From assembly GCA_903889445.1 (NCBI GenBank), contig CAISXF010000005.1, forward strand, positions 151,030 through 215,029: a stretch of 64,000 nucleotides of DNA, written 5' to 3'. Shown in pieces: positions 2,795 to 55,377 of the stretch. How positions within the stretch are numbered: position 1 is the stretch's first letter; each line of letters starts with the position of its first letter. The position numbers and the translations under genes were made by a program. Below the pieces are notes generated by a model that was not told the origin of the DNA, did no database searches, and was given only the letters and a program-made list of their open reading frames with translations. Source of the stretch: an uncultured Pseudomonadota bacterium. GTDB lineage: Bacteria; Pseudomonadota; Gammaproteobacteria; Methylococcales; Methylomonadaceae.

Positions 2795-5470
2795 TTAATC
2801 ACGCGATTGAAAATGTAAAAAATCAATCAAACGCATGGATTCGCTGACTTCGTTATGCGGTAATAACAGATATTTCCATGATTTTGTCGTCACTTTTTTA
2901 GCGTGAACAGATGCATTTTGACACCATGTTTTTGCGGCAATCGCTTTGGATTGTACTTCTTGCGTGTCAATGTCGTTTTGCGCTTTGGTTTCGACCATAA
3001 AAATACTGGTCTCCGTTTCAGCGATAAAATCAGGAATATATTCGGGCTGTTCTGTACCCGATTTATAGTAAATCTGGAATTGACCTTTAACTGGTTTGAA
3101 CCATTTCAACGCATCGCGTTCAAGAATAATAGCAAAACGTCGCTCTGTATCCGAATCAAATTTTTGTAGCGGGTATAAACATTTTTGAAAACCGCTAAAA
3201 ATCATTTTTTTGATGTTTGCTTTATCCACTAGGGTTTCACGAAAATAACGCGCTTTTTGTTCGGTTGCCGTGTAGTTGCACGGTTTTAATTCCGTAAAAC
3301 CGCGACTAATTTTAACTTCATAATCCGTCGCTTGTTCCCAAAAATGCGCCACCATTTGTGCGTGAATTTCTTTGGCAATTAAACGATTATCGTGGTGTAA
3401 AACATTTTTGGCATTGGCTTCAGATAAGTAACTTCGCAAATGTTCAACCATTTGACCAGTCAAATCATAAAGCAATTCGGATTGGGTGAAATAATCTATA
3501 TCTTCAAAATCAACCAACGCATGAATCAGATAATCTTCTAATCGTGCCTGTTTTAATCCTGTTTCAGCCGCCAGAGTAAATTGTTCATTGGTTCGCAAAT
3601 TCTGTCCCACAATTTCATGTTCGCGTGCTTGCAAATGCAATTTGCTAATGTCGAGTTTAAAAGGATGAAAACCTGTTGTGATTTCACCTGTTGGCACAAC
3701 AGTGATTCGAGGAATATCGATAGTTTGTTGTACAACTAACTCCGTTGTTTTGCTTACTACTTGAGATAAATCAATTTTTTCTTCCGTGAAAATGCTTGCT
3801 TGATTTGGTCTTAAACGTTCTGTGACTTCCGCGAGAATTTCTTTTTGTACCTGTGCATTGAGCAACGCGCCACTGGTTGGCACAAAATCACATTGTGTTT
3901 CAAATGAACGAATAACATCTAAGGTTGTTTTTGCCGCCAACAATTCCGATTCAGAAACAAATAACGGGGGCTTTTCTGTTGTTGATTCGGAATTTTTTAC
4001 GATGCCAAGTTTCGTATAAAGGTTTGATTCGACGTAAACACTGATTTTTTGTTCTTGTTCATTCGGTTTTTCTAAAATCACTTGTTTCAATCGAATAGGA
4101 GAATCACCTCGATTGGCTGCGTCGATGATTTCTTGAAATTTATCATGTGCCACAATGTTTAAACGGTCTACCGCATCAATGCCTGTGCGCTTTCCATAAG
4201 GCAAACGCAATCCCCGTCCAATCGATTGTTCGATCAAGGTTCGGGCATTCGCCGCACGCAACGGCACAATTGTATAAAGATTGGTCACGTCCCAACCTTC
4301 TTTAAGCATATTGACGTGAATCACAATCTCGGTTGGTTCATCGACACTTTCCACCGCCAATAATCGCGCAATCATGATTTCTTCTTCTGCGCCCGATTTG
4401 CTCGAATCAACTTGAATCACTTTGCCGCGATAACGTCCCTCATGAAATTGCTCAGATTCTATTAGCGTTAATAATTGCGCGGCGTGCGTGGTATCGCGTG
4501 CAATTACCAACATAAAAGGTTTCACTAATTTGACGTTGTTTTCACGCGAATACGTTAAAAGTTCGACTTTCGTGGTTTCGTGCAAACGCACGCCGTCTTC
4601 TAATTTTATTTTTTCAAGTTCTTCGGGCGAATAGGCTTTTACATCAAAACCACGTTGCGTCACAACAGCGGGTTCTTTGACAAAACCGTCTTCCATTGCA
4701 CGCGCTAACGGATAATCAACAACCACATTTTTAAACGGTATCGGAGCGCGTGAAGTTTCAACAAAAGGTGTGGCAGTGAGTTCTAAACCTAACAAGGGTT
4801 TAAGTTCGTTAATGGCACGCATTCCCGCTTGAGCGCGATAACGGTGCGATTCGTCCATCAGCAAAACTAAATCAGGCAATTCCGCCAAATAATTAAAATA
4901 GCTGTCGCCCAGATATTCGGATAAACGTTTTATTTTGGGTGATTTTCCACCGCGAACTTCAGACGTGATTTTGGCAATGTTGAAAATGTTAATTGAAATC
5001 GCGCCAAAAATATCCAGCGCACGACCTTTGGTCTCGTAGTCATCGCCAGTAATGACTTTCGGCGGATTGATGGCAAATTCTGAAATGCCTTTGAACACAT
5101 ATTTCGGCGTGTTGGGCGTGAAATCTGCGATGAGTTTGTTATAAATCGTTAAGTTTGGCGCGAGGACAAAAAAATGATTGATGCCGTGTGCAAGATGTAA
5201 ATAGGAAATAAATGCGCCCATCAAGCGCGTTTTGCCCACGCCCGTCGCTAATGCAAAACACAACGATGGAAAATCACGCTCAAAATCTTCAAGCGTCGAA
5301 AACTCCATTTTTAACGTTTCTAAAATCGCCGTTAAATCACGCTCTTGTTTTAAAACATCGGGCGATAAATCGATGGTTTTTGCAAGACTGGTTAGCGATT
5401 CGGCTTGTGGCGCACGCAACGATAATCGTCCGATAAGATTGTGAAGTATTTTTGATTTCATGTTTTCCAT
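2795..5470 (-). CDS. res: Type III restriction enzyme Res subunit (SF2 helicase plus C-terminal PD-ExK nuclease)
   Basis: 891-aa ORF with Walker A ALATGVGKT, DExH box LLMDESHRYRA and a helicase C region ..IGRGLRLPYG... A C-terminal nuclease-like motif YIPDF..x13..MVETK is present. It lies downstream of a mod gene on the same strand. Confidence 0.85.
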   Translation of the reverse strand: MENMKSKILHNLIGRLSLRAPQAESLTSLAKTIDLSPDVLKQERDLTAILETLKMEFSTLEDFERDFPSLCFALATGVGKTRLMGAFISYLHLAHGINHFFVLAPNLTIYNKLIADFTPNTPKYVFKGISEFAINPPKVITGDDYETKGRALDIFGAISINIFNIAKITSEVRGGKSPKIKRLSEYLGDSYFNYLAELPDLVLLMDESHRYRAQAGMRAINELKPLLGLELTATPFVETSRAPIPFKNVVVDYPLARAMEDGFVKEPAVVTQRGFDVKAYSPEELEKIKLEDGVRLHETTKVELLTYSRENNVKLVKPFMLVIARDTTHAAQLLTLIESEQFHEGRYRGKVIQVDSSKSGAEEEIMIARLLAVESVDEPTEIVIHVNMLKEGWDVTNLYTIVPLRAANARTLIEQSIGRGLRLPYGKRTGIDAVDRLNIVAHDKFQEIIDAANRGDSPIRLKQVILEKPNEQEQKISVYVESNLYTKLGIVKNSESTTEKPPLFVSESELLAAKTTLDVIRSFETQCDFVPTSGALLNAQVQKEILAEVTERLRPNQASIFTEEKIDLSQVVSKTTELVVQQTIDIPRITVVPTGEITTGFHPFKLDISKLHLQAREHEIVGQNLRTNEQFTLAAETGLKQARLEDYLIHALVDFEDIDYFTQSELLYDLTGQMVEHLRSYLSEANAKNVLHHDNRLIAKEIHAQMVAHFWEQATDYEVKISRGFTELKPCNYTATEQKARYFRETLVDKANIKKMIFSGFQKCLYPLQKFDSDTERRFAIILERDALKWFKPVKGQFQIYYKSGTEQPEYIPDFIAETETSIFMVETKAQNDIDTQEVQSKAIAAKTWCQNASVHAKKVTTKSWKYLLLPHNEVSESMRLIDFLHFQSRD

Positions 5471-5483
5471 TTGTGTGTCGATA

Positions 5484-5544
5484 TGCGGCTAAAGCCGCAC
5501 CTATATTTGTGTTTGTGATTATCGTAGGTGCGGCTTTAGCCGCA
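5484..5544. repeat. REP doublet (REPIN), head-to-head, 19-nt spacer
   Basis: 5484-5504 tgcggctaaagccgcacctat is the inverted partner of 5524-5544 GTAGGTGCGGCTTTAGCCGCA. Each unit is itself a hairpin (tgcggc/gccgca). The left unit has a degenerate head (ATAG instead of GTAG). Confidence 0.9.
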
Positions 5545-5550
5545 TTGTAT

Positions 5551-6006
5551 TTATAACCATATCGCGTCCCAATGCGAATAATCGCCGATGTTTTTTACCA
5601 AGTTGGCGCGCAGTGGATTTGCCACAATATATCGGGCAATCGATTGAACATCTTCCTCTTCGCGCAACGCATGGTCATAAAAATTCCTTTGCCATAACGT
5701 TCCATTTTGTCCTAAATAACCATTGATTTCACGCGCCGAACGACCTTTAAAAACACCAACTATTTCAGATAAAGATTTTGTTGTTTCTCCTAACTGAAAT
5801 AACCAATGCACATGGTCTGGCATAACAACCCACGCCATCGAATAAACAATTTTTTGTTCGTGCAATAATTTCATATTTTGAACCACTAAACGAGCGCACT
5901 TGAAATTCTCAAAATAACGCGCCTTTCGATTTGCAAGCACCGTTGTTACAAAATATGCACGTCCATTTTCACTAAATCGTCCTTTGCGTAAATCATCATA
6001 AGCCAT
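5551..6006 (-). mobile_element. rayT: REP-associated tyrosine transposase (RAYT, IS200/IS605-like HUH Y1 transposase), 151 aa
   Basis: From ATG 6006: MAYDDLRKGRFSENGRAYFVTTV... It carries the HUH motif VVMPDHVHWLFQ and the catalytic Tyr region ARYIVANPLRANLV. REP doublets flank it on both sides. The 186-aa ORF in the track is an upstream read-through across the REP doublet. Confidence 0.85.
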
Positions 6007-6027
6007 TGTTAAAATTCCTAATTTAAA

Positions 6028-6085
6028 TGCGGCTAAAGCCGCACCTACAGTTTTTAATAATTTTGTAGGTGCGGCTTTAGCCGCA
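6028..6085. repeat. REP doublet (REPIN), head-to-head, 16-nt spacer
   Basis: 6028-6048 tgcggctaaagccgcacctac and 6065-6085 GTAGGTGCGGCTTTAGCCGCA are perfect 21-nt inverted copies. They lie in the 97-nt gap between the mod stop (6104) and the RAYT start (6006). Confidence 0.92.
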
Positions 6086-6103: not shown

Positions 6104-7825
6104 TCAATCAAACAAATCCATCGTACCGTTATCTTTGCGTTTTACCGATTCAAACGATTTCAAATCCGACGGTTGCGCCATCGGTAAATTCGCCACATTC
6201 AAACTGTAATCATCATGTCCCCATTCACAACGCGCCAAAATCATTTTGGGGATTTTTTTAAGCGTTAAATTCGCCCAACGTTCCACCGCCTCCGTACCAC
6301 TCACACCATGAAACGCACTGCAACAAATCAACAAACTTTGCGTGCCGACTTCTTCCGAAAGCATCTGCAATTGTTGCGCGGAAAGATTTTGCGTCGTGAC
6401 GTAAATAAAATCATTTTCGGACGAATAACCGTGTTTCCACCACTGCGTTTCAGAGGGCGCGTAAGTGAAACCTTCTAATTTCGCTAACGCTTCGGCTAAC
6501 ATCGCAGGATTATATTCAGGATTGATAATTTCCATGCCCCAACGGTCTTTAATAATCAAAGTCGGCGCGAGTTTGTAATAACGAAAACCACCGCCACCTT
6601 TCCAATTCACCGTTTTAGAAATCCCGCCTTGGTCTTCGCCATCAATCACTTTTTGCAAACGCGGCATAATATGCGTGTGGCAATGTTCACCGAGTTCAAT
6701 CATTATCCAACGTCGTCCCATTTTTTGAGCCACTGCACCTGTTGTGCCTGAACCTGCAAAGGAATCTAAAACAAGGTCGTTTGGATTTGTGGCAATTTCG
6801 AGAACACGTTTAATTAAACGTTCTGGTTTTGGAGTTGCAAATAGTTCAGAGGTTGTCACGTCTGGAAATAGTTTTTTTAGTTCATATTTGGCTTGTCTAT
6901 TATGTCCAGTTGCATCTAAATCATCCCATATTGTTGAAGGGGATAATCCACCTTGGTCTGCCAAATATGTTTTTTTAATTACACGAGTTCCATCTTTTGA
7001 AAAAACGAGTTCTTTACGGTCAATCATTTCTTGTACCCGTGATTCACTCCAACGCCAACCATTTTTAGGCGGTTCAATTTCTACACCCGTAGGACTAAAT
7101 ATAGTAAATCGCAAATTTGGTCTTGGATTTGGTGATGATAAATTTCCTGAAAACCAGTCGCCTCTTGGGTCATTATCTGGATTTGAATAATGGGCATTAG
7201 AGTCATCGGTTCGAGCTAAAGGAATACTTCGCCAACCTGTGTTTTTTGAATAAACCAATATCTGGTTGTGGTCTAAAGAAAATTGTTTTGCGTCATTATT
7301 TGATGAATCTGCTGATCGCCAAGCTATTGAAGCTACAAAACATGAACGTCCAAACAATTCATCACACAACACTTTCAAATAATGCGCTTCGTTGTCATCA
7401 ATCGTAATCCACAATGAACCGTCATCAGCAAGCAAAGAACGGATAATTTCTAAGCGGTCACGCATCAAACCGAGCCAAATCGAATGTTCTAAACCGTCAT
7501 CGTAATGTTGGAATGCGCTGCCTGTGTTGTAAGGCGGGTCGATAAAAACGCATTTAATTTTGCCTGTAAATTCTTGTTCTAAGGCTTTGAGTGCAAGCAA
7601 GTTGTCACCGAAAATCAAACGGTTGTCAAAAATATCTTGTGTAGGTGCGGCTTCAGCCGCATTGTTCGACGACGTACCATTTGTTGCGGCTGAAGCCGCA
7701 CCTACAAATGGGAATCGTCTAAATTTTGCATGGTAGGATTTTTCTTTGTCTTCAAGCAGAATGCGTGGCTCTAAACGTGGGCGTTTTTCTTTGCCAATCC
7801 ATGTTAGTTCTAGTTTTTGTTTCAT
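6104..7825 (-). CDS. mod: Type III-like DNA methyltransferase Mod (beta-class N6-adenine/N4-cytosine MTase)
   Basis: 573-aa ORF. Motif IV FIDPPYNTG comes before motif I DSFAGSGTTG, which is the beta permutation. The N-terminus KLELTWIGKEKRPRLEPRILLED is typical of Mod-type methylases. It is upstream of and co-oriented with res. Confidence 0.85.
   Translation of the reverse strand: MKQKLELTWIGKEKRPRLEPRILLEDKEKSYHAKFRRFPFVGAASAATNGTSSNNAAEAAPTQDIFDNRLIFGDNLLALKALEQEFTGKIKCVFIDPPYNTGSAFQHYDDGLEHSIWLGLMRDRLEIIRSLLADDGSLWITIDDNEAHYLKVLCDELFGRSCFVASIAWRSADSSNNDAKQFSLDHNQILVYSKNTGWRSIPLARTDDSNAHYSNPDNDPRGDWFSGNLSSPNPRPNLRFTIFSPTGVEIEPPKNGWRWSESRVQEMIDRKELVFSKDGTRVIKKTYLADQGGLSPSTIWDDLDATGHNRQAKYELKKLFPDVTTSELFATPKPERLIKRVLEIATNPNDLVLDSFAGSGTTGAVAQKMGRRWIMIELGEHCHTHIMPRLQKVIDGEDQGGISKTVNWKGGGGFRYYKLAPTLIIKDRWGMEIINPEYNPAMLAEALAKLEGFTYAPSETQWWKHGYSSENDFIYVTTQNLSAQQLQMLSEEVGTQSLLICCSAFHGVSGTEAVERWANLTLKKIPKMILARCEWGHDDYSLNVANLPMAQPSDLKSFESVKRKDNGTMDLFD
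7641..7705. repeat. REP doublet (REPIN variant, tail-to-tail, 23-nt spacer) embedded in the mod coding sequence
   Basis: 7641-7661 GTAGGTGCGGCTTCAGCCGCA and 7685-7705 tgcggctgaagccgcacctac. This is the same 21-mer as the RAYT-flanking REPs except the loop is TTCA rather than TTTA in both arms. It is translated in-frame as ..FVGAASAATNGTSSNNAAEAAPT.. of Mod. Confidence 0.9.
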
Positions 7826-7878
7826 CGTGTTTAAAGTTTCCTAAAAGGTAGCGAGCGACAATCTAAGCTCTTCAAATT

Positions 7879-8442
7879 TCATTGCAACACCCATTCAATT
7901 TTAAAAAGTGTTCGTTCGTGTATTTTCTGCTCTAACTGCTTTTCAAGCTCTTCAATCAAGTCATTACGTTCAGCTTCAATTTTATCCTGATTAACAAACA
8001 ACTCACGCCGTAATTTACTGCGCTTGGTTTCAAGTTCACGTTGCTGTTTTTGCCAATGCAATTTTTCTTCAAGTGTTGGCGAACCCGAAGCCGTGCGGCG
8101 AACTTCTTTAATTTCACGGTCGATTTCTTTAATTTCCTGTTCTAAACCGTGTTTCAAATCATCCGCCCACGCATCGAGCTTTTCAACTTCTAAGTCAAAA
8201 TAACCTAAATTACGTTGATTGATGTCACGCAAAAGCATAGATTTTCGCGTTTCAATATCGTTTAACAACGGCGTATCTTTTAATTCAAAATCTGTCGCAG
8301 GTAAAACGTGTGCGGGAATACGCAATAATTTTTCAGGGTCATATTCTTCCAAAACACTGCCATCGAACTGACAAGCTGAAACAATTAAATGTTCTTCGAC
8401 GTTTCCGAAACATTCACAACAAACAAGCTCACACTCAACCAA
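7879..8442 (-). CDS. C-terminal part of the SNF2-family protein (coiled-coil tail), separated from the body by a frameshift
   Basis: 187-aa frame opening at a TTG directly after an in-frame TAA. It overlaps the end of the 8385-10775 frame by 58 nt. The sequence is highly charged with heptad-like repeats: EIKEIDREIKEVRR..KRSKLRRELFVNQDKIEAERNDLIEELEKQLEQK. No independent ATG or SD was seen. Confidence 0.6.
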   Translation of the reverse strand: MVECELVCCECFGNVEEHLIVSACQFDGSVLEEYDPEKLLRIPAHVLPATDFELKDTPLLNDIETRKSMLLRDINQRNLGYFDLEVEKLDAWADDLKHGLEQEIKEIDREIKEVRRTASGSPTLEEKLHWQKQQRELETKRSKLRRELFVNQDKIEAERNDLIEELEKQLEQKIHERTLFKIEWVLQ

Positions 8443-10775
8443 CCCGATTTACCACGATGATTATTTTTAAGCGTGCTGATTTGATTGCCATAACCATCAT
8501 AATCGAAAACCAAACGCGCCACGGGAAGCGTGCGACTTTTAGCTTGTTGCAAAAGCCATTCAGCCAACGGGTGTCCCAAACGATACAAATGCGCTTCACC
8601 TGTACGACGTGGCAATTCATAACGTCCAAGTGCAATGTCTTTTAAATGGATATTCGGCAATTGTTCAAGCACAAAACCACGCCCATCAAATTCTGCACAA
8701 TCGTGTAATTCTGACCGTGTTAAATCCATTAACATTTTTTCAAAACGATTCCGCACCGAATAACTATCTTCGGCGCAAATTCGTAATTTCTCTTGAACTT
8801 GTTCATCAAAATGATCGAGTAAAATTTGGCGCGTTTTGACCATCGCATCGTTAATTTCACCTGATAACTCACGTTGCAATTGTTCAAAACTATTTTTGAT
8901 TTCGTTTACATCGCGGCAATTTTGATAAATATCCGCAATGCGCTGCTCAAAATCAATGCCTGAACCAATTGCGCCTAAGACTTCATCACTCGCCCCAAAA
9001 ACACCTTCAAACAATTGAAATTTTTGCGCTAAAAGCTCATAAACTCGCGCATCGGCTTCATTGCTACGGTCTACAAAATTCACGACGACCACATCAAATT
9101 TTTGTCCGTAACGATGGCAACGACCAATGCGCTGTTCAATACGTTGTGGATTCCAAGGCAAATCGTAATTGATAACGAGCGAACAAAATTGAAGGTTAAT
9201 GCCTTCTGCACCTGCTTCGGTTGCAATCATGACGGTGCCGCGTTCTTTGAATTCTTCAACAAGTGCGGCGCGGATGTCCGCTGTTTTAGAACCTGTAATA
9301 AAATCAGTGCCTGCGTGACGTTTTAACCATTGTCTGTAAATTTTCTGCGCCCGAGCATCGCTATTGGTGCCATTAAACAAAACAATGCTTTCACCATAAT
9401 GCGTTTCCGCCAGCAATGACAAAAGATAATCTTGCGTTCGCCTAGATTCAGTAAAAATAATGGCTTTTTTGGGTGCGCCTAAACGTTCTAATTCGACAAA
9501 TGCACGTTCTAACGCGGTCAAAAGTGCTGTTCCTTTTGCATTTTCACGAATGTTCGTCGCTAAGTTTTTAAAATGCCGCAGCTCTTTAATTTCTTGTGCA
9601 ATCGCAATTTTTTCTTCTGTATTCAACAAAATTTCATCATCGATTTCACTGCCCCATTCATCACTAATTTCATCCAGCGATTCAAAATCATTGTCCAATT
9701 CATCAGAAAGATGAGGCACATCTGTCATTTCATTTAACAGATTTTGCAAACGATTCGCCATTGTTTCCAATGCACCTGCAATGGCGTGTGTGGAAGAAGC
9801 GAGTAATTTCCAAAGCACCAATGAAATCAGTTGTCGTTGACCTTGTGGAAGAGCTTTAAGTTGTGGGCGACGCAAATAATCCGCGACAAGATGGGTTAAT
9901 TCTTTTTCTTCAATCGAAGGTGTAAATTCTTGAACGATTGCTCTGCGTGCCGTGTAAGAAACATAAGGCTGAACGTGATAACGCAATGTGCGTTTACAAA
10001 TAGGCGCAAGTCTGTTTTTCAACTGTTGAAACGCCACGCTTTTCCCTGAACTTGAAAATTGCGCCCGAAAACTGTCTAAATCACCAAAAATACGGTCATC
10101 AATAATACTGACCAAACCATATAATTCCAGCAATGAATTTTGCAGCGGCGTTGCCGTGAGCAATACTTTCAAATGAACTTTTTCTAAGGCATCTTTGATT
10201 GTTCGCGCAATGACGTTGCTGGGTTTATACACGTTACGCAATCGATGTGCTTCATCATCAAGGACAACCAAATGCCAATCAACGGCTTTGATTTTGTCGG
10301 CTTTCGTTTTCGCGAACTGATACGAACATAAAACAATTTCGTCCGATGTCGAAAATGGATTTGAATTCTGTTTTTTGGCGATGAGGTTATAGTTTTTCGT
10401 TTCAAGAATGAGACTTTTCAAACCGAATTTGTCTTGTAATTCTTGATACCACTGTTTGCGTAAATTAGCGGGAACAATAATTAAAATGCGTCGCCGCCGT
10501 TCTGCCCAATGTTGAGAAATGACAAGCCCAGCTTCAATCGTTTTTCCAAGTCCCACTTCGTCCGCGAGAATAACGCCTTTCGAGAGTGGATTTTTACAAG
10601 CAAACAAAGCTGCATCAACTTGATGAGGATTTAAATCAATTTGTGCATCCACTAAAGTCGAAGCAAACGATTCCATTGACTCACTCGACGAACGACGAGT
10701 GAGTAACCATGCGTAGAATTGGTTTTGATAGGGTGTCAGCAAATCATTTTTCACACTGCTTTTTAACTCAGCCAT
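8385..10775 (-). CDS. SNF2/RAD54-family (SF2) ATPase, N-terminal 796 codons; probably one roughly 960-aa gene with 7879-8442
   Basis: Motif [11 protein letters not shown], motif [14 protein letters not shown], and helicase-C motifs ..[12 protein letters not shown].. and [21 protein letters not shown] 10775 overlaps the hemC stop (the ORF-track start 10778 is a TTG one codon upstream). Confidence 0.85.
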
Positions 10776-11697
10776 CAATCAATGCTTTCAAAATTTCAGC
10801 CGCGCCTTGCTTGAGTAATTCATCGGCAATACTTTCGCCAATTTCAATCGCATTTTCAGCGTGACCACGTTGTTCAGCGCGATAAATAACGCTGCCGTCA
10901 GGATTTCCGACTAAACCACGCATGAAAATTTCGCCGTCGTTCAATTCAGCAAAACCTGCAATCGGAACTTGGCAACCGCCATTTAATCTGGCATTCATGG
11001 CGCGTTCAGCGATAACACAAATTGCAGTCATTTCATCGTGCAACGCTTTTAACATTTCGTTAATTTCAACATCATCAACGCGGCATTCAATGCCAATTGC
11101 ACCTTGTCCGCACGCAGGCAAACTGGTTTCAATTGGCAAACGTTGGCTAATTCTATCCGCCATGCCTAACCGTTTCAAACCAGCGGAAGCCAAAATAATT
11201 GCGTCATATTCGCCCGCGTCGAGTTTTGCTAATCGAGTATTCACATTGCCGCGCAACGATAAAATTTCAGCCTTCGGAAAATGCGCTTTGATTTGACATT
11301 GACGGCGTAAACTCGACGTGCCGATTCGAGCATTTTCGGGCAATTCGTTGAGATTTTGATACTGATTCGACACAAACGCATCGGTCGGATCTTCGCGTTC
11401 CAAAATCGCGGCGAGGTGCAAACCTTCGGGGAAATCAATCGGCACGTCTTTCATGGAATGCACCGCAATATCGGCATTCCCTTCGAGCATTCCTTGTTCG
11501 AGTTCTTTTACAAACAAACCTTTTCCGCCAATTTTGGCAAGTGGCGCGTCGAGAATTTTATCGCCGCGCGTCACCATTTTAACGAGTTCGGTTTGAATAT
11601 GAGGAAACGCTTTCTGTAAAAGCGCGGCGACGTGTTCGGCTTGCCAAAGAGCTAACGGACTTTGACGGGTGGCAATTCGGATAATTTTAATAGTCAC
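10768..11697 (-). CDS. hemC: Porphobilinogen deaminase (hydroxymethylbilane synthase)
   Basis: 309-aa ORF with N-terminus [18 protein letters not shown] and the ..[21 protein letters not shown].. signature of HemC. Confidence 0.95.
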
Positions 11698-27683: not shown

Positions 27684-28040
27684 TTATTTTTTAATTGGTT
27701 TACGAGGTCCTTTACGAGTGCGTGCGTTCGTTCTAGTACGCTGCCCCCTTAATGGCAACCCTCTACGATGTCTTATTCCGCGATAACAACCTAAATCCAT
27801 TAGGCGTTTGATATTCATAGACACCTCACGACGAAGATCGCCTTCGACGGTCATCTTTGCTACAGCACCACGAATAGCTTCTATCTTATCCTCAGTTAAA
27901 TCTTTTATTTTTACCGAAGGTAACACACCTACCTCACTACAAATTTCATTTGCAGTTTGACGACCTATGCCATAAATTGCGGTTAACGCGATAACCGCGT
28001 GTTTGTGGTCTGGTACATTTATGCCAGCAATACGTGCCAT
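27684..28040 (-). CDS. rpsM: 30S ribosomal protein S13
   Basis: 118 aa, [26 protein letters not shown]. Confidence 0.97.
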
Positions 28041-28090
28041 TTAATACTCCCCCTGAGTACATATTCTAATTTCTAAGATTGACGTCGATA

Positions 28091-28118
28091 ATTATAACAT
28101 ATTGTAATAATTGGGCAA
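28091..28118 (-). promoter_or_regulatory. Candidate sigma70 promoter for the alpha operon (rpsM-rpsK-rpsD-rpoA-rplQ)
   Basis: Minus strand reads TTGCCC (28118-28113), a 16-nt spacer, then TATAAT (28096-28091), about 50 nt upstream of the rpsM ATG in the 86-nt rpmJ-rpsM gap. This is a pattern match only. Confidence 0.35.
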
Positions 28119-54986: not shown

Positions 54987-55062
54987 TGGCAGGCCAGGAG
55001 GGGATCGAACCCCCAACCAACGGTTTTGGAGACCGCCATTCTACCAATTGAACTACTGACCT
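54987..55062 (-). tRNA. trpT: tRNA-Trp (CCA)
   Basis: Reverse complement AGGTCAGTAGTTCAATTGGTAGAATGGCGGTCTCCAAAACCGTTGGTTGGGGGTTCGATCCCCTCCTGGCCTGCCA. It has a 7-bp acceptor stem, anticodon loop CTCCAAA, a GTTCGATCC T-arm and an encoded CCA. Confidence 0.92.
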
Positions 55063-55212
55063 TTTAAATACAGAAAAATCCTCATAAAGAGCTGGCATCA
55101 CAAAAACACGAACTCTATCGTAATTAAAAATTGATGCATGCAACATGCTTTTACTATACCAAATATTCCACTAAACATCTTCATAGTAAAAATTAACGCT
55201 TCAGTCTATTTT

Positions 55213-55288
55213 TGGAGCTCATAACCGGATTTGAACCGGTGACCTCTTCCTTACCAAGGAAGTACTCTACCGACTGAGCTATATGAGC
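55213..55288 (-). tRNA. tRNA-Thr (GGT)
   Basis: Reverse complement GCTCATATAGCTCAGTCGGTAGAGTACTTCCTTGGTAAGGAAGAGGTCACCGGTTCAAATCCGGTTATGAGCTCCA. Acceptor GCTCATA/TATGAGC, anticodon loop TTGGTAA. Confidence 0.92.
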
Positions 55289-55294
55289 ACTTTT

Positions 55295-55368
55295 TGGAGC
55301 GGGTGATGGGAATCGAACCCACGCAATCAGCTTGGAAGGCTGGAGTTCTACCATTGAACTACACCCGC
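55295..55368 (-). tRNA. tRNA-Gly (TCC)
   Basis: Reverse complement GCGGGTGTAGTTCAATGGTAGAACTCCAGCCTTCCAAGCTGATTGCGTGGGTTCGATTCCCATCACCCGCTCCA. Anticodon loop CTTCCAA. Confidence 0.92.
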
Positions 55369-55377
55369 TGAATTATT

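Follow-up and report, generated by a model that had tools for sequence, protein, structure and literature searches.

Type III restriction-modification (R-M) has been viewed for about 50 years as a two-protein machine, exemplified by EcoP15I and EcoP1I (Mod2Res1), with cleavage at unmethylated sites in inverse orientation. The locus described here, on a 64,000-nucleotide stretch (the window) of contig CAISXF010000005.1 from an uncultured member of the Methylomonadaceae (assembly GCA_903889445.1), resembles these enzymes in having a beta-class Mod methyltransferase of Pfam family PF01555 with a central target-recognition domain and exchangeable specificity, a Res protein with a superfamily 2 (SF2) ATPase and a C-terminal PD-(D/E)xK nuclease, and mod followed by res on one strand. 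It differs in that operons of the window type add a conserved SNF2 ATPase of about 960 amino acids (aa) and two slots that usually hold defence genes. The comparisons presented below indicate that SNF2 is probably a third component, conserved alongside Mod and Res, of a Type III-like R-M operon that is widespread and has the order SNF2, slot, Mod, slot, Res.

The closest described concepts are class 1 DISARM, ietHAS, MANTIS and R-M operons with embedded abortive-infection genes. Class 1 DISARM is similar in that an SNF2 protein of the nearest family (DrmD_b) and an N6-adenine methylase head a methylation-based defence operon, and the C-terminal tail of the window SNF2 weakly matches DrmD models. 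However, DrmA, DrmB (DUF1998) and DrmC (PLD) are absent from the island between hemC and hemD, where a Res helicase-nuclease is the effector, and the methylase belongs to PF01555 whereas DrmMI of class 1 DISARM is described as PF13659. Nor were DrmA, DrmB or DrmC seen in the related loci inspected or the cargo identified, although their models were not scanned systematically there. The initial annotation, made from the sequence without database searches, had likewise presented DISARM as a resemblance, citing the pairing of DrmD with DrmMI and the lack of the three core genes here, and the analogy is apt.

In ietHAS, the helicase gene ietH is orthologous to the window SNF2 gene, but the system is described as three genes, SNF2-IetA-IetS. 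In the prr locus, the anticodon nuclease PrrC is embedded in the hsd operon of the Type Ic system EcoprrI. Like BREX and Type I systems with embedded genes, prr shows an R-M operon hosting defence or abortive-infection genes in layered immunity; these cases differ from the present one in the type of R-M, in that SNF2 and mod flank the slots here, and in that the cargo here is far more varied. MANTIS (Gao_RL; bioRxiv 10.64898/2026.09.23.753747) is also methylation-based with a Type III-like site logic and a requirement for an extra ATPase, but that ATPase is the AAA+ protein MtsA with its co-regulator MtsB, and the methylase and effector are unrelated to Mod and Res of the window. Neither PADLOC nor NCBIfam nor the searchable literature yielded a name or description of an SNF2-Mod-Res trio (REBASE and the system rules of PADLOC and DefenseFinder were not covered), although informal recognition may predate this work. 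An existing subtype name, which according to the initial annotation would have refuted its proposal, was not found within that range.

Linkage of SNF2 with Mod and Res across genomes

The association of SNF2 with Mod and Res was examined from both sides. The forward scan took one genome per species and comprised 80 loci with SNF2 homologues of 42-74% identity, 53 of which include at least 8 kb of downstream DNA. Mod and Res lie downstream on the same strand in 50 of the 53 and directly upstream in two, and one has neither, for a total of 52 of 53 with partners; the order Mod-Res-SNF2 (L061, L077) still keeps the trio together. The loci come from more than ten phyla, including Proteobacteria, Bacteroidota, Verrucomicrobiota, Acidobacteriota, Planctomycetota, the Candidate Phyla Radiation, Firmicutes and Deinococcota. 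The reverse scan comprised 80 metagenome loci seeded with the window Res, and SNF2 was found in 28 of the 31 that extend 7 kb or more beyond mod in the upstream direction. Linkage to mod and res across unrelated taxa, which the initial annotation had named as the test of its proposal, is thus observed.

Three Type III lineages pair with the SNF2 family: type A, the window type, in which Mod is about 570 aa and Res about 890 aa long; type B, in which the corresponding lengths are about 1030 and 1100 aa; and type C, which is EcoP15I-like with an RE_endonuc domain. The trio is co-directional, and its genes lie close together (3-66 nt) where cargo is missing. In a set of 64 type A loci, the pairwise distances of SNF2 and Res are correlated (Mantel r = 0.80, with none of 999 permutations as high) and no pair is discordant.

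The genes could nevertheless keep company without working together, if a plain two-gene Type III R-M system and an independent SNF2 defence gene were the bookends of a mobile defence-island scaffold. The settings in which the systems occur lend this some credit, as they include conjugative plasmids of Salmonella and Klebsiella/E. coli, a Deinococcus plasmid, a tRNA-Phe island of E. coli and an integrative and conjugative element (ICE) of P. aeruginosa, and so does the region between the genes, a hotspot for 69 clusters of unrelated cargo; classical Type III enzymes, moreover, need no third protein. Bookends would not be expected, however, to co-occur in 98% of loci in the forward and 90% in the reverse direction across phyla and three Mod/Res lineages, to be always co-directional and often tightly spaced without cargo, to diverge in step, or to stay together when the order is Mod-Res-SNF2. 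Because the linkage is near-obligate, two-way and cross-lineage, simple co-travel is disfavoured and considered unlikely, and the initial view of the trio as a distinct architecture and not a chance neighbourhood is supported.

On plasmids and ICEs, a small helix-turn-helix (HTH) gene often overlaps or just precedes the SNF2 start (L081 6232-6432, L168 9763-10008, L176 9742-9942); this recurrent gene may be a controller of the operon resembling a C protein. In the window, hemC takes the place of the HTH gene. One cargo-free type B trio, on the E. coli plasmid pEC316_2 (L168 9763-19515), consists of the HTH gene, SNF2 and genes for a methyltransferase of 1046 aa and a helicase of 1120 aa. The plasmid is a conjugative one of the IncF group, and on it the trio follows ssb, psiB and psiA a few kb downstream, with two insertion sequence transposase genes between; this is probably the plasmid leading region, an unusual site for a restriction system.

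Family and predicted fold of the SNF2 protein

The 796-aa open reading frame (ORF) that makes up most of the window SNF2 gene matches the Pfam domains SNF2-rel_dom (4e-33) and Helicase_C (2e-22). The best family match of SNF2 is DrmD (650 bits with the PADLOC model, 663-670 bits with NCBIfam DrmD_b), so that by sequence DrmD_b of DISARM is the nearest family. Descent from a class 1 DISARM system that has lost drmABC might be proposed on the strength of these matches, but the intact homologue P0001 (locus L083, 97% identical to the window protein) scores 670 bits against DrmD_b (NF038318), under the curated cut-off of 950, and the match is limited to the ATPase core (profile positions 19-653 of 868). 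With a methylase of the wrong family, the DISARM core genes missing from the loci and cargo as far as inspected, and hemC and hemD bounding the island tightly, a degenerate DISARM is very improbable. MANTIS/Gao_RL, Hma, BREX BrxHII, Dpd DpdE and Zorya ZorD were rejected as home families of this SNF2 on account of far lower scores or absent partner genes.

A structural model of the protein was made with AlphaFold2 from an alignment of 81 diverse sequences (mean pLDDT 87.9, pTM 0.85); an alignment of 45 close homologues gave a pLDDT of 57.5 and was not used for the fold search. Past the ATPase core, the model predicts a helical hairpin (residues 621-687), an alpha/beta domain (692-824) and an antiparallel coiled-coil hairpin (835-896 and 900-945), after which the last strand goes back to the beta domain. 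The description read from the sequence, of a non-helicase region of about 200 aa followed by a heptad tail, is borne out by this model.

The top solved structures retrieved by Foldseek are of E. coli RapA (about 1050 alignment columns, query TM-scores 0.44-0.55). RapA is the best solved-structure match by both sequence and fold, which is the attraction of regarding the window protein as a housekeeping RNA-polymerase recycling factor that happens to be located in a hem operon. Yet its score with the NCBIfam RapA model (NF003426) is 177-184 bits, far from the cut-off of 576, and the N-terminal Tudor domains are missing, since the alignment takes in RapA only from residue 131 onward. A housekeeping factor is also hard to reconcile with a gene that is patchy, horizontally mobile and always with Mod/Res, and that is a pseudogene in the window; there is very little to recommend this explanation. 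BrxHII of type 3 BREX and ArmA of ARMADA share with RapA and the window SNF2 an overall RapA-like fold past the ATPase core; the window SNF2 differs in having no N-terminal Tudor domain and in an added long coiled-coil hairpin, and the partners of BrxHII and ArmA are PglX/PglZ or YprA, as opposed to Mod and Res. Judged by sequence and predicted fold, it is a RapA-like motor of the kind found in BREX type 3, ARMADA and DISARM, yet forms a separate clade.

The clade is large: clustering at 50% identity gives at least 150 clusters, most of which align end to end with the query, and the NCBI annotation pipeline (PGAP) labels its members merely as "SNF2-related protein." Two proteins of about 1990 aa (P0149, P0159) consist of a full-length family member with a UvrD-like SF1 helicase fused to its N-terminus; the identity of the N-terminal part rules them out as Mod::SNF2 or Res::SNF2 fusions.

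Mod and Res

The profile searches proposed in the initial annotation returned matches for all three genes. Mod matches N6_N4_Mtase (PF01555, 3e-46) and PADLOC MTase_III (711 bits); its motif IV (FIDPPYNTG) is legible ahead of motif I (DSFAGSGTTG), and the target-recognition domain lies between. Res matches Pfam ResIII (3e-21) and PADLOC REase_III (702 bits) and contains the motifs GVGKT, DESH, IPDF and VETK, of which the last two belong to the PD...ExK nuclease; window-type Res proteins match the EcoP15I-type models weakly. The family and motif order of Mod, as well as the SF2 and PD-(D/E)xK domains of Res and its position 3′ of mod, are therefore those of Type III R-M, but a system of Mod and Res only is not what is found, SNF2 being conserved as a third gene. 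The PADLOC models label the three proteins apart, as DrmD, MTase_III and REase_III.

Cargo slots

In 74 of 85 type A loci the gap between SNF2 and mod is longer than 1 kb, and in seven, among them the window, it is 250 nt or less; more than 1 kb separates mod and res in 24 of 81. These two gaps are cargo slots that hold exchangeable defence genes. The 192 co-directional ORFs of the slots form 69 clusters, and cargo was identified by scanning representatives of the largest clusters and from the loci inspected. The largest cluster is AIPR/AbiU-like (36 members), while YhcG/DUF1016 nucleases and RhuM are mostly in slot 2. Other cargo includes LmuB-like (Lamassu-like) SMC ATPases, Ppl-like ABC ATPases, HEC-01 (AAA_21 with DUF4276), IetA with IetS, AbiD, AbiEii, Dsr2, GmrSD and a PLD nuclease. 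In slot 1 of one locus, AIPR has as its neighbour a protein of 666 aa (L005 10705-12705) that weakly matches HATPase_c (GHKL) and recalls the MORC-type ATPases that have been reported in R-M operons (PMC2292703).

Relationship to ietHAS

The sole SNF2 family member with experimental data is ietH. The system ietHAS (Liu-DS4) was validated by Liu et al. as IetAS together with a DrmD-like SNF2 helicase, the K65A and D165A mutations of which abolish protection against T7 and cause toxicity, and the paper makes no mention of a methyltransferase or of Type III (PMC13069673). In E. coli O104:H4 (NZ_CP027394, L170 8756-19519), the same IetA is encoded in a tRNA-Phe island within a five-gene operon in the order SNF2 (949 aa), IetA, IetS, methyltransferase and DEAD/DEAH helicase. 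The SNF2 protein of this operon is 44% identical to P0001 from end to end and has K65 and D165 at the published positions, and its Res is 46% identical to that of the window; it is by residue numbering and by this genomic context that ietH was tied to the SNF2 family. The IetA in question occurs in 74 of 5426 complete E. coli genomes. Judging from this island, published ietHAS seems to represent the 5′ three genes of an operon of five, SNF2-IetA-IetS-Mod-Res. The window locus has the orthologous SNF2, but neither IetA nor IetS in its slot 1.

The ietH data show that the ATPase of the motor matters for defence and that there is a genetic interaction with slot cargo. They raise the question of whether SNF2 belongs to the cargo, as a regulator, antitoxin or chaperone of abortive-infection effectors, with Mod-Res as a separate neighbour: the ATPase mutants of the E. 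coli orthologue lose IetAS-based defence and are toxic (PMC13069673), and the window haplotype pairs loss of SNF2 function with an empty slot. Against this, 25 of 113 loci overall (16 of 23 in type B) keep SNF2 but have no slot-1 cargo, and this share of about a quarter disfavours a role confined to cargo. The cargo is also too diverse for a single specific partner, and many of its families work alone elsewhere. An SNF2 that serves cargo only is accordingly rated as improbable.

The window locus and its sister haplotype

Within the window, an SNF2 gene of the DrmD-like family whose product has the predicted alpha/beta domain and coiled coil is co-directional with Type III mod and res, but it is a pseudogene. 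Its frame is broken by a deletion of one nucleotide at about 8415/8416, where the window has GTTGTGAATG and P0001, which reads across the site, has GTCGTTGAATG. Repair of the frameshift yields a protein of 965 aa, close to the 960 or so initially estimated, and the gap of 53 nt that had been given between this gene and mod on the same strand is exact. The C-terminal part remains as an ORF of 187 aa (7879-8442), which weakly matches the DrmD C-terminus. The second lesion is a triplet duplication in motif II (the DEAH box), of which D172, E173 and H175 are invariant in 81 of 81 diverse SNF2 homologues; the resulting "DDEAHRLRN" is aberrant. The helicase motifs quoted in the initial annotation are present, with the qualification that the "LDDEAH" it took for a motif is this lesion.

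At least seven contigs, assembled independently from a Methylococcaceae population, encode the identical 796-aa product, and the broken allele is therefore real, which rules out sequencing error as the cause of the frameshift. Programmed frameshifting was ruled out as well, for want of a slippery heptamer and because every relative keeps a single frame. The system in the window is decaying: besides the two lesions of SNF2, there is no cargo in slot 1, mod contains a REPIN (an inverted REP pair), and the space between mod and res is taken up by a REP-associated tyrosine transposase (RAYT). The frames of mod and res are intact despite the lesions of SNF2. The third REPIN copy, that in mod, has one compensated mismatch per arm, and the six REP arms are the sole matches to the 20-mer in the window.

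In the sister haplotype L083, from the same population, SNF2 is intact, slot 1 holds GmrSD (a DUF262/DUF1524 Type IV restriction protein of 577 aa, L083 9846-11579) and Mod has a different target-recognition domain. The domain of the window (6794-7330) is replaced by that of L083 (12014-12529) between flanks that are about 96% identical in DNA, and the two domains have low protein identity, as judged from the alignment by eye; the replacement implies that specificity was recently switched by recombination. Since the haplotypes also differ in the presence of GmrSD, the slots turn over within one species. GmrSD is independently present in slot 1 of an E. coli chromosomal copy (STEC309, hit H26).

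Table 1. Features of the SNF2-mod-res island and its surroundings in the window.
Feature	Coordinates	Strand	Remarks
valS	14566-11768	minus	gene beyond hemC
hemC	10768-11697	minus	upstream boundary; stop codon overlaps SNF2 start (ATGGCTGA), 8-nt overlap
SNF2 gene, whole	10775-7879	minus
SNF2 part 5′ of frameshift (796 aa)	8385-10775	minus	DrmD-like, RapA-like; start ATG 10775
Walker A K78 of SNF2	10544-10542	minus
GAT-GAT triplet duplication in motif II (DEAH box)	10254-10259	minus	extra Asp: LDDEAH vs LDEAH
1-nt deletion site	8411-8426	minus	window sequence TTGTTTGTTGT-GAATG
SNF2 C-terminal part, -1 frame	7879-8415	minus	end of predicted alpha/beta domain, coiled-coil hairpin, terminal strand
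Empty cargo slot 1	7826-7878	minus	53 nt, between SNF2 and mod
mod, beta-class N6-adenine methyltransferase, 573 aa	6104-7825	minus	DPPY precedes FxGxG
REPIN within mod 5′ part	7631-7723	minus	in frame; about 23 aa added
Target-recognition domain of mod	6794-7330	minus	exchanged relative to sister haplotype L083
Cargo slot 2 with RAYT (5551-6006)	5484-6085	minus	REPINs on both sides: 5484-5544, 6028-6085
res, SF2 ATPase (ResIII) and C-terminal PD-(D/E)xK nuclease (IPDF...VETK)	2795-5470	minus	frame intact
hemD	2015-2791	minus	downstream boundary; start 3 nt past res stop codon; hemX next

The island of about 8 kb, wholly on the minus strand and with only SNF2, mod, RAYT and res as members, is set seamlessly into the hemCDXY operon (Table 1). 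The hemC-hemD operon is essential, and expression of hemD presumably relies on read-through across the island; a scan of the island for promoters and terminators gave counts at chance level. Other genomic sites are used by the system in Methylomonas (L174) and P. aeruginosa (L176). Elsewhere the window contains an alpha-operon ribosome-binding-site leader (28008-28100) and five tRNA genes (Trp, Thr, Gly, Tyr and Gln, 54987-57784), an ordinary core-chromosome context.

Proposed function of the three-gene system

If SNF2 is a component of the R-M system, its physical cooperation with Mod and Res, suggested by genomics and one indirect experiment, might take the following form. By analogy with EcoP15I, Mod would hemimethylate a short asymmetric site, thereby specifying the target and marking self DNA, a function as target specifier that the swapped target-recognition domain fits. 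Res would be an ATP-switched nuclease. SNF2 would act as an ATP-driven remodeller or translocase on DNA, licensing restriction and the slot effector on unmodified DNA, and would not be needed for methylation. The viability of a haplotype with dead SNF2 but intact mod and res argues weakly against a role in methylation alone, because a cell that lost methylation but kept Res active should die. Recombination anchored in two conserved stretches, the 3′ end of SNF2 and the 5′ end of mod, may allow autonomous defence genes to be swapped.

Several observations weigh against an integral role for SNF2. Classical Type III enzymes such as EcoP15I function without any SNF2, and the window copy of SNF2 is dead with mod and res apparently intact, so SNF2 is dispensable for host viability. 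Most of the cargo families (AbiD, AbiE, Dsr2, GmrSD, Lamassu) are reported to defend alone elsewhere and would therefore need no general licensing. The ietHAS work used SNF2 and cargo only, and SNF2 may for that reason serve the cargo and not restriction. Three Res-seeded loci and one SNF2-seeded locus have no partner within the fetched DNA; in the three, SNF2 may sit past the locus edge, because co-directional genes fill the DNA up to it. Finally, a rough neighbour-joining tree of SNF2 has a type A clade of purity 0.92, and types B and C are not monophyletic; the congruence with Mod/Res type being partial, partner switching has occurred. With these points taken into account, a third conserved component remains the probable description of SNF2.

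A bolder version of this proposal makes SNF2 the hub of a modular two-layer immune operon, in which a RapA-like remodeller docked through its coiled coil would couple Type III R-M as the first line of defence to an interchangeable abortive-infection effector as the second, licensing or restraining that effector according to what is met on DNA; ietHAS-like systems would then be fragments of such operons. This version is put forward tentatively, as a possibility with the odds against it.

Implications

The SNF2-[cargo]-Mod-Res architecture is of real interest, and the window copy is a decaying example of it. A clade spanning many phyla, with representatives in E. coli O104:H4, ICEs of P. aeruginosa and conjugative plasmids of Salmonella and Klebsiella, gives Type III-like R-M a near-obligate SNF2 partner, which raises the question of what a motor of the chromatin-remodeller type contributes to restriction. 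Annotation tools break the system into unrelated pieces, and the O104:H4 operon suggests that ietHAS, at least, was characterised without its Mod-Res context. The two slots are a defined and predictable hotspot in which to mine for new defence genes.

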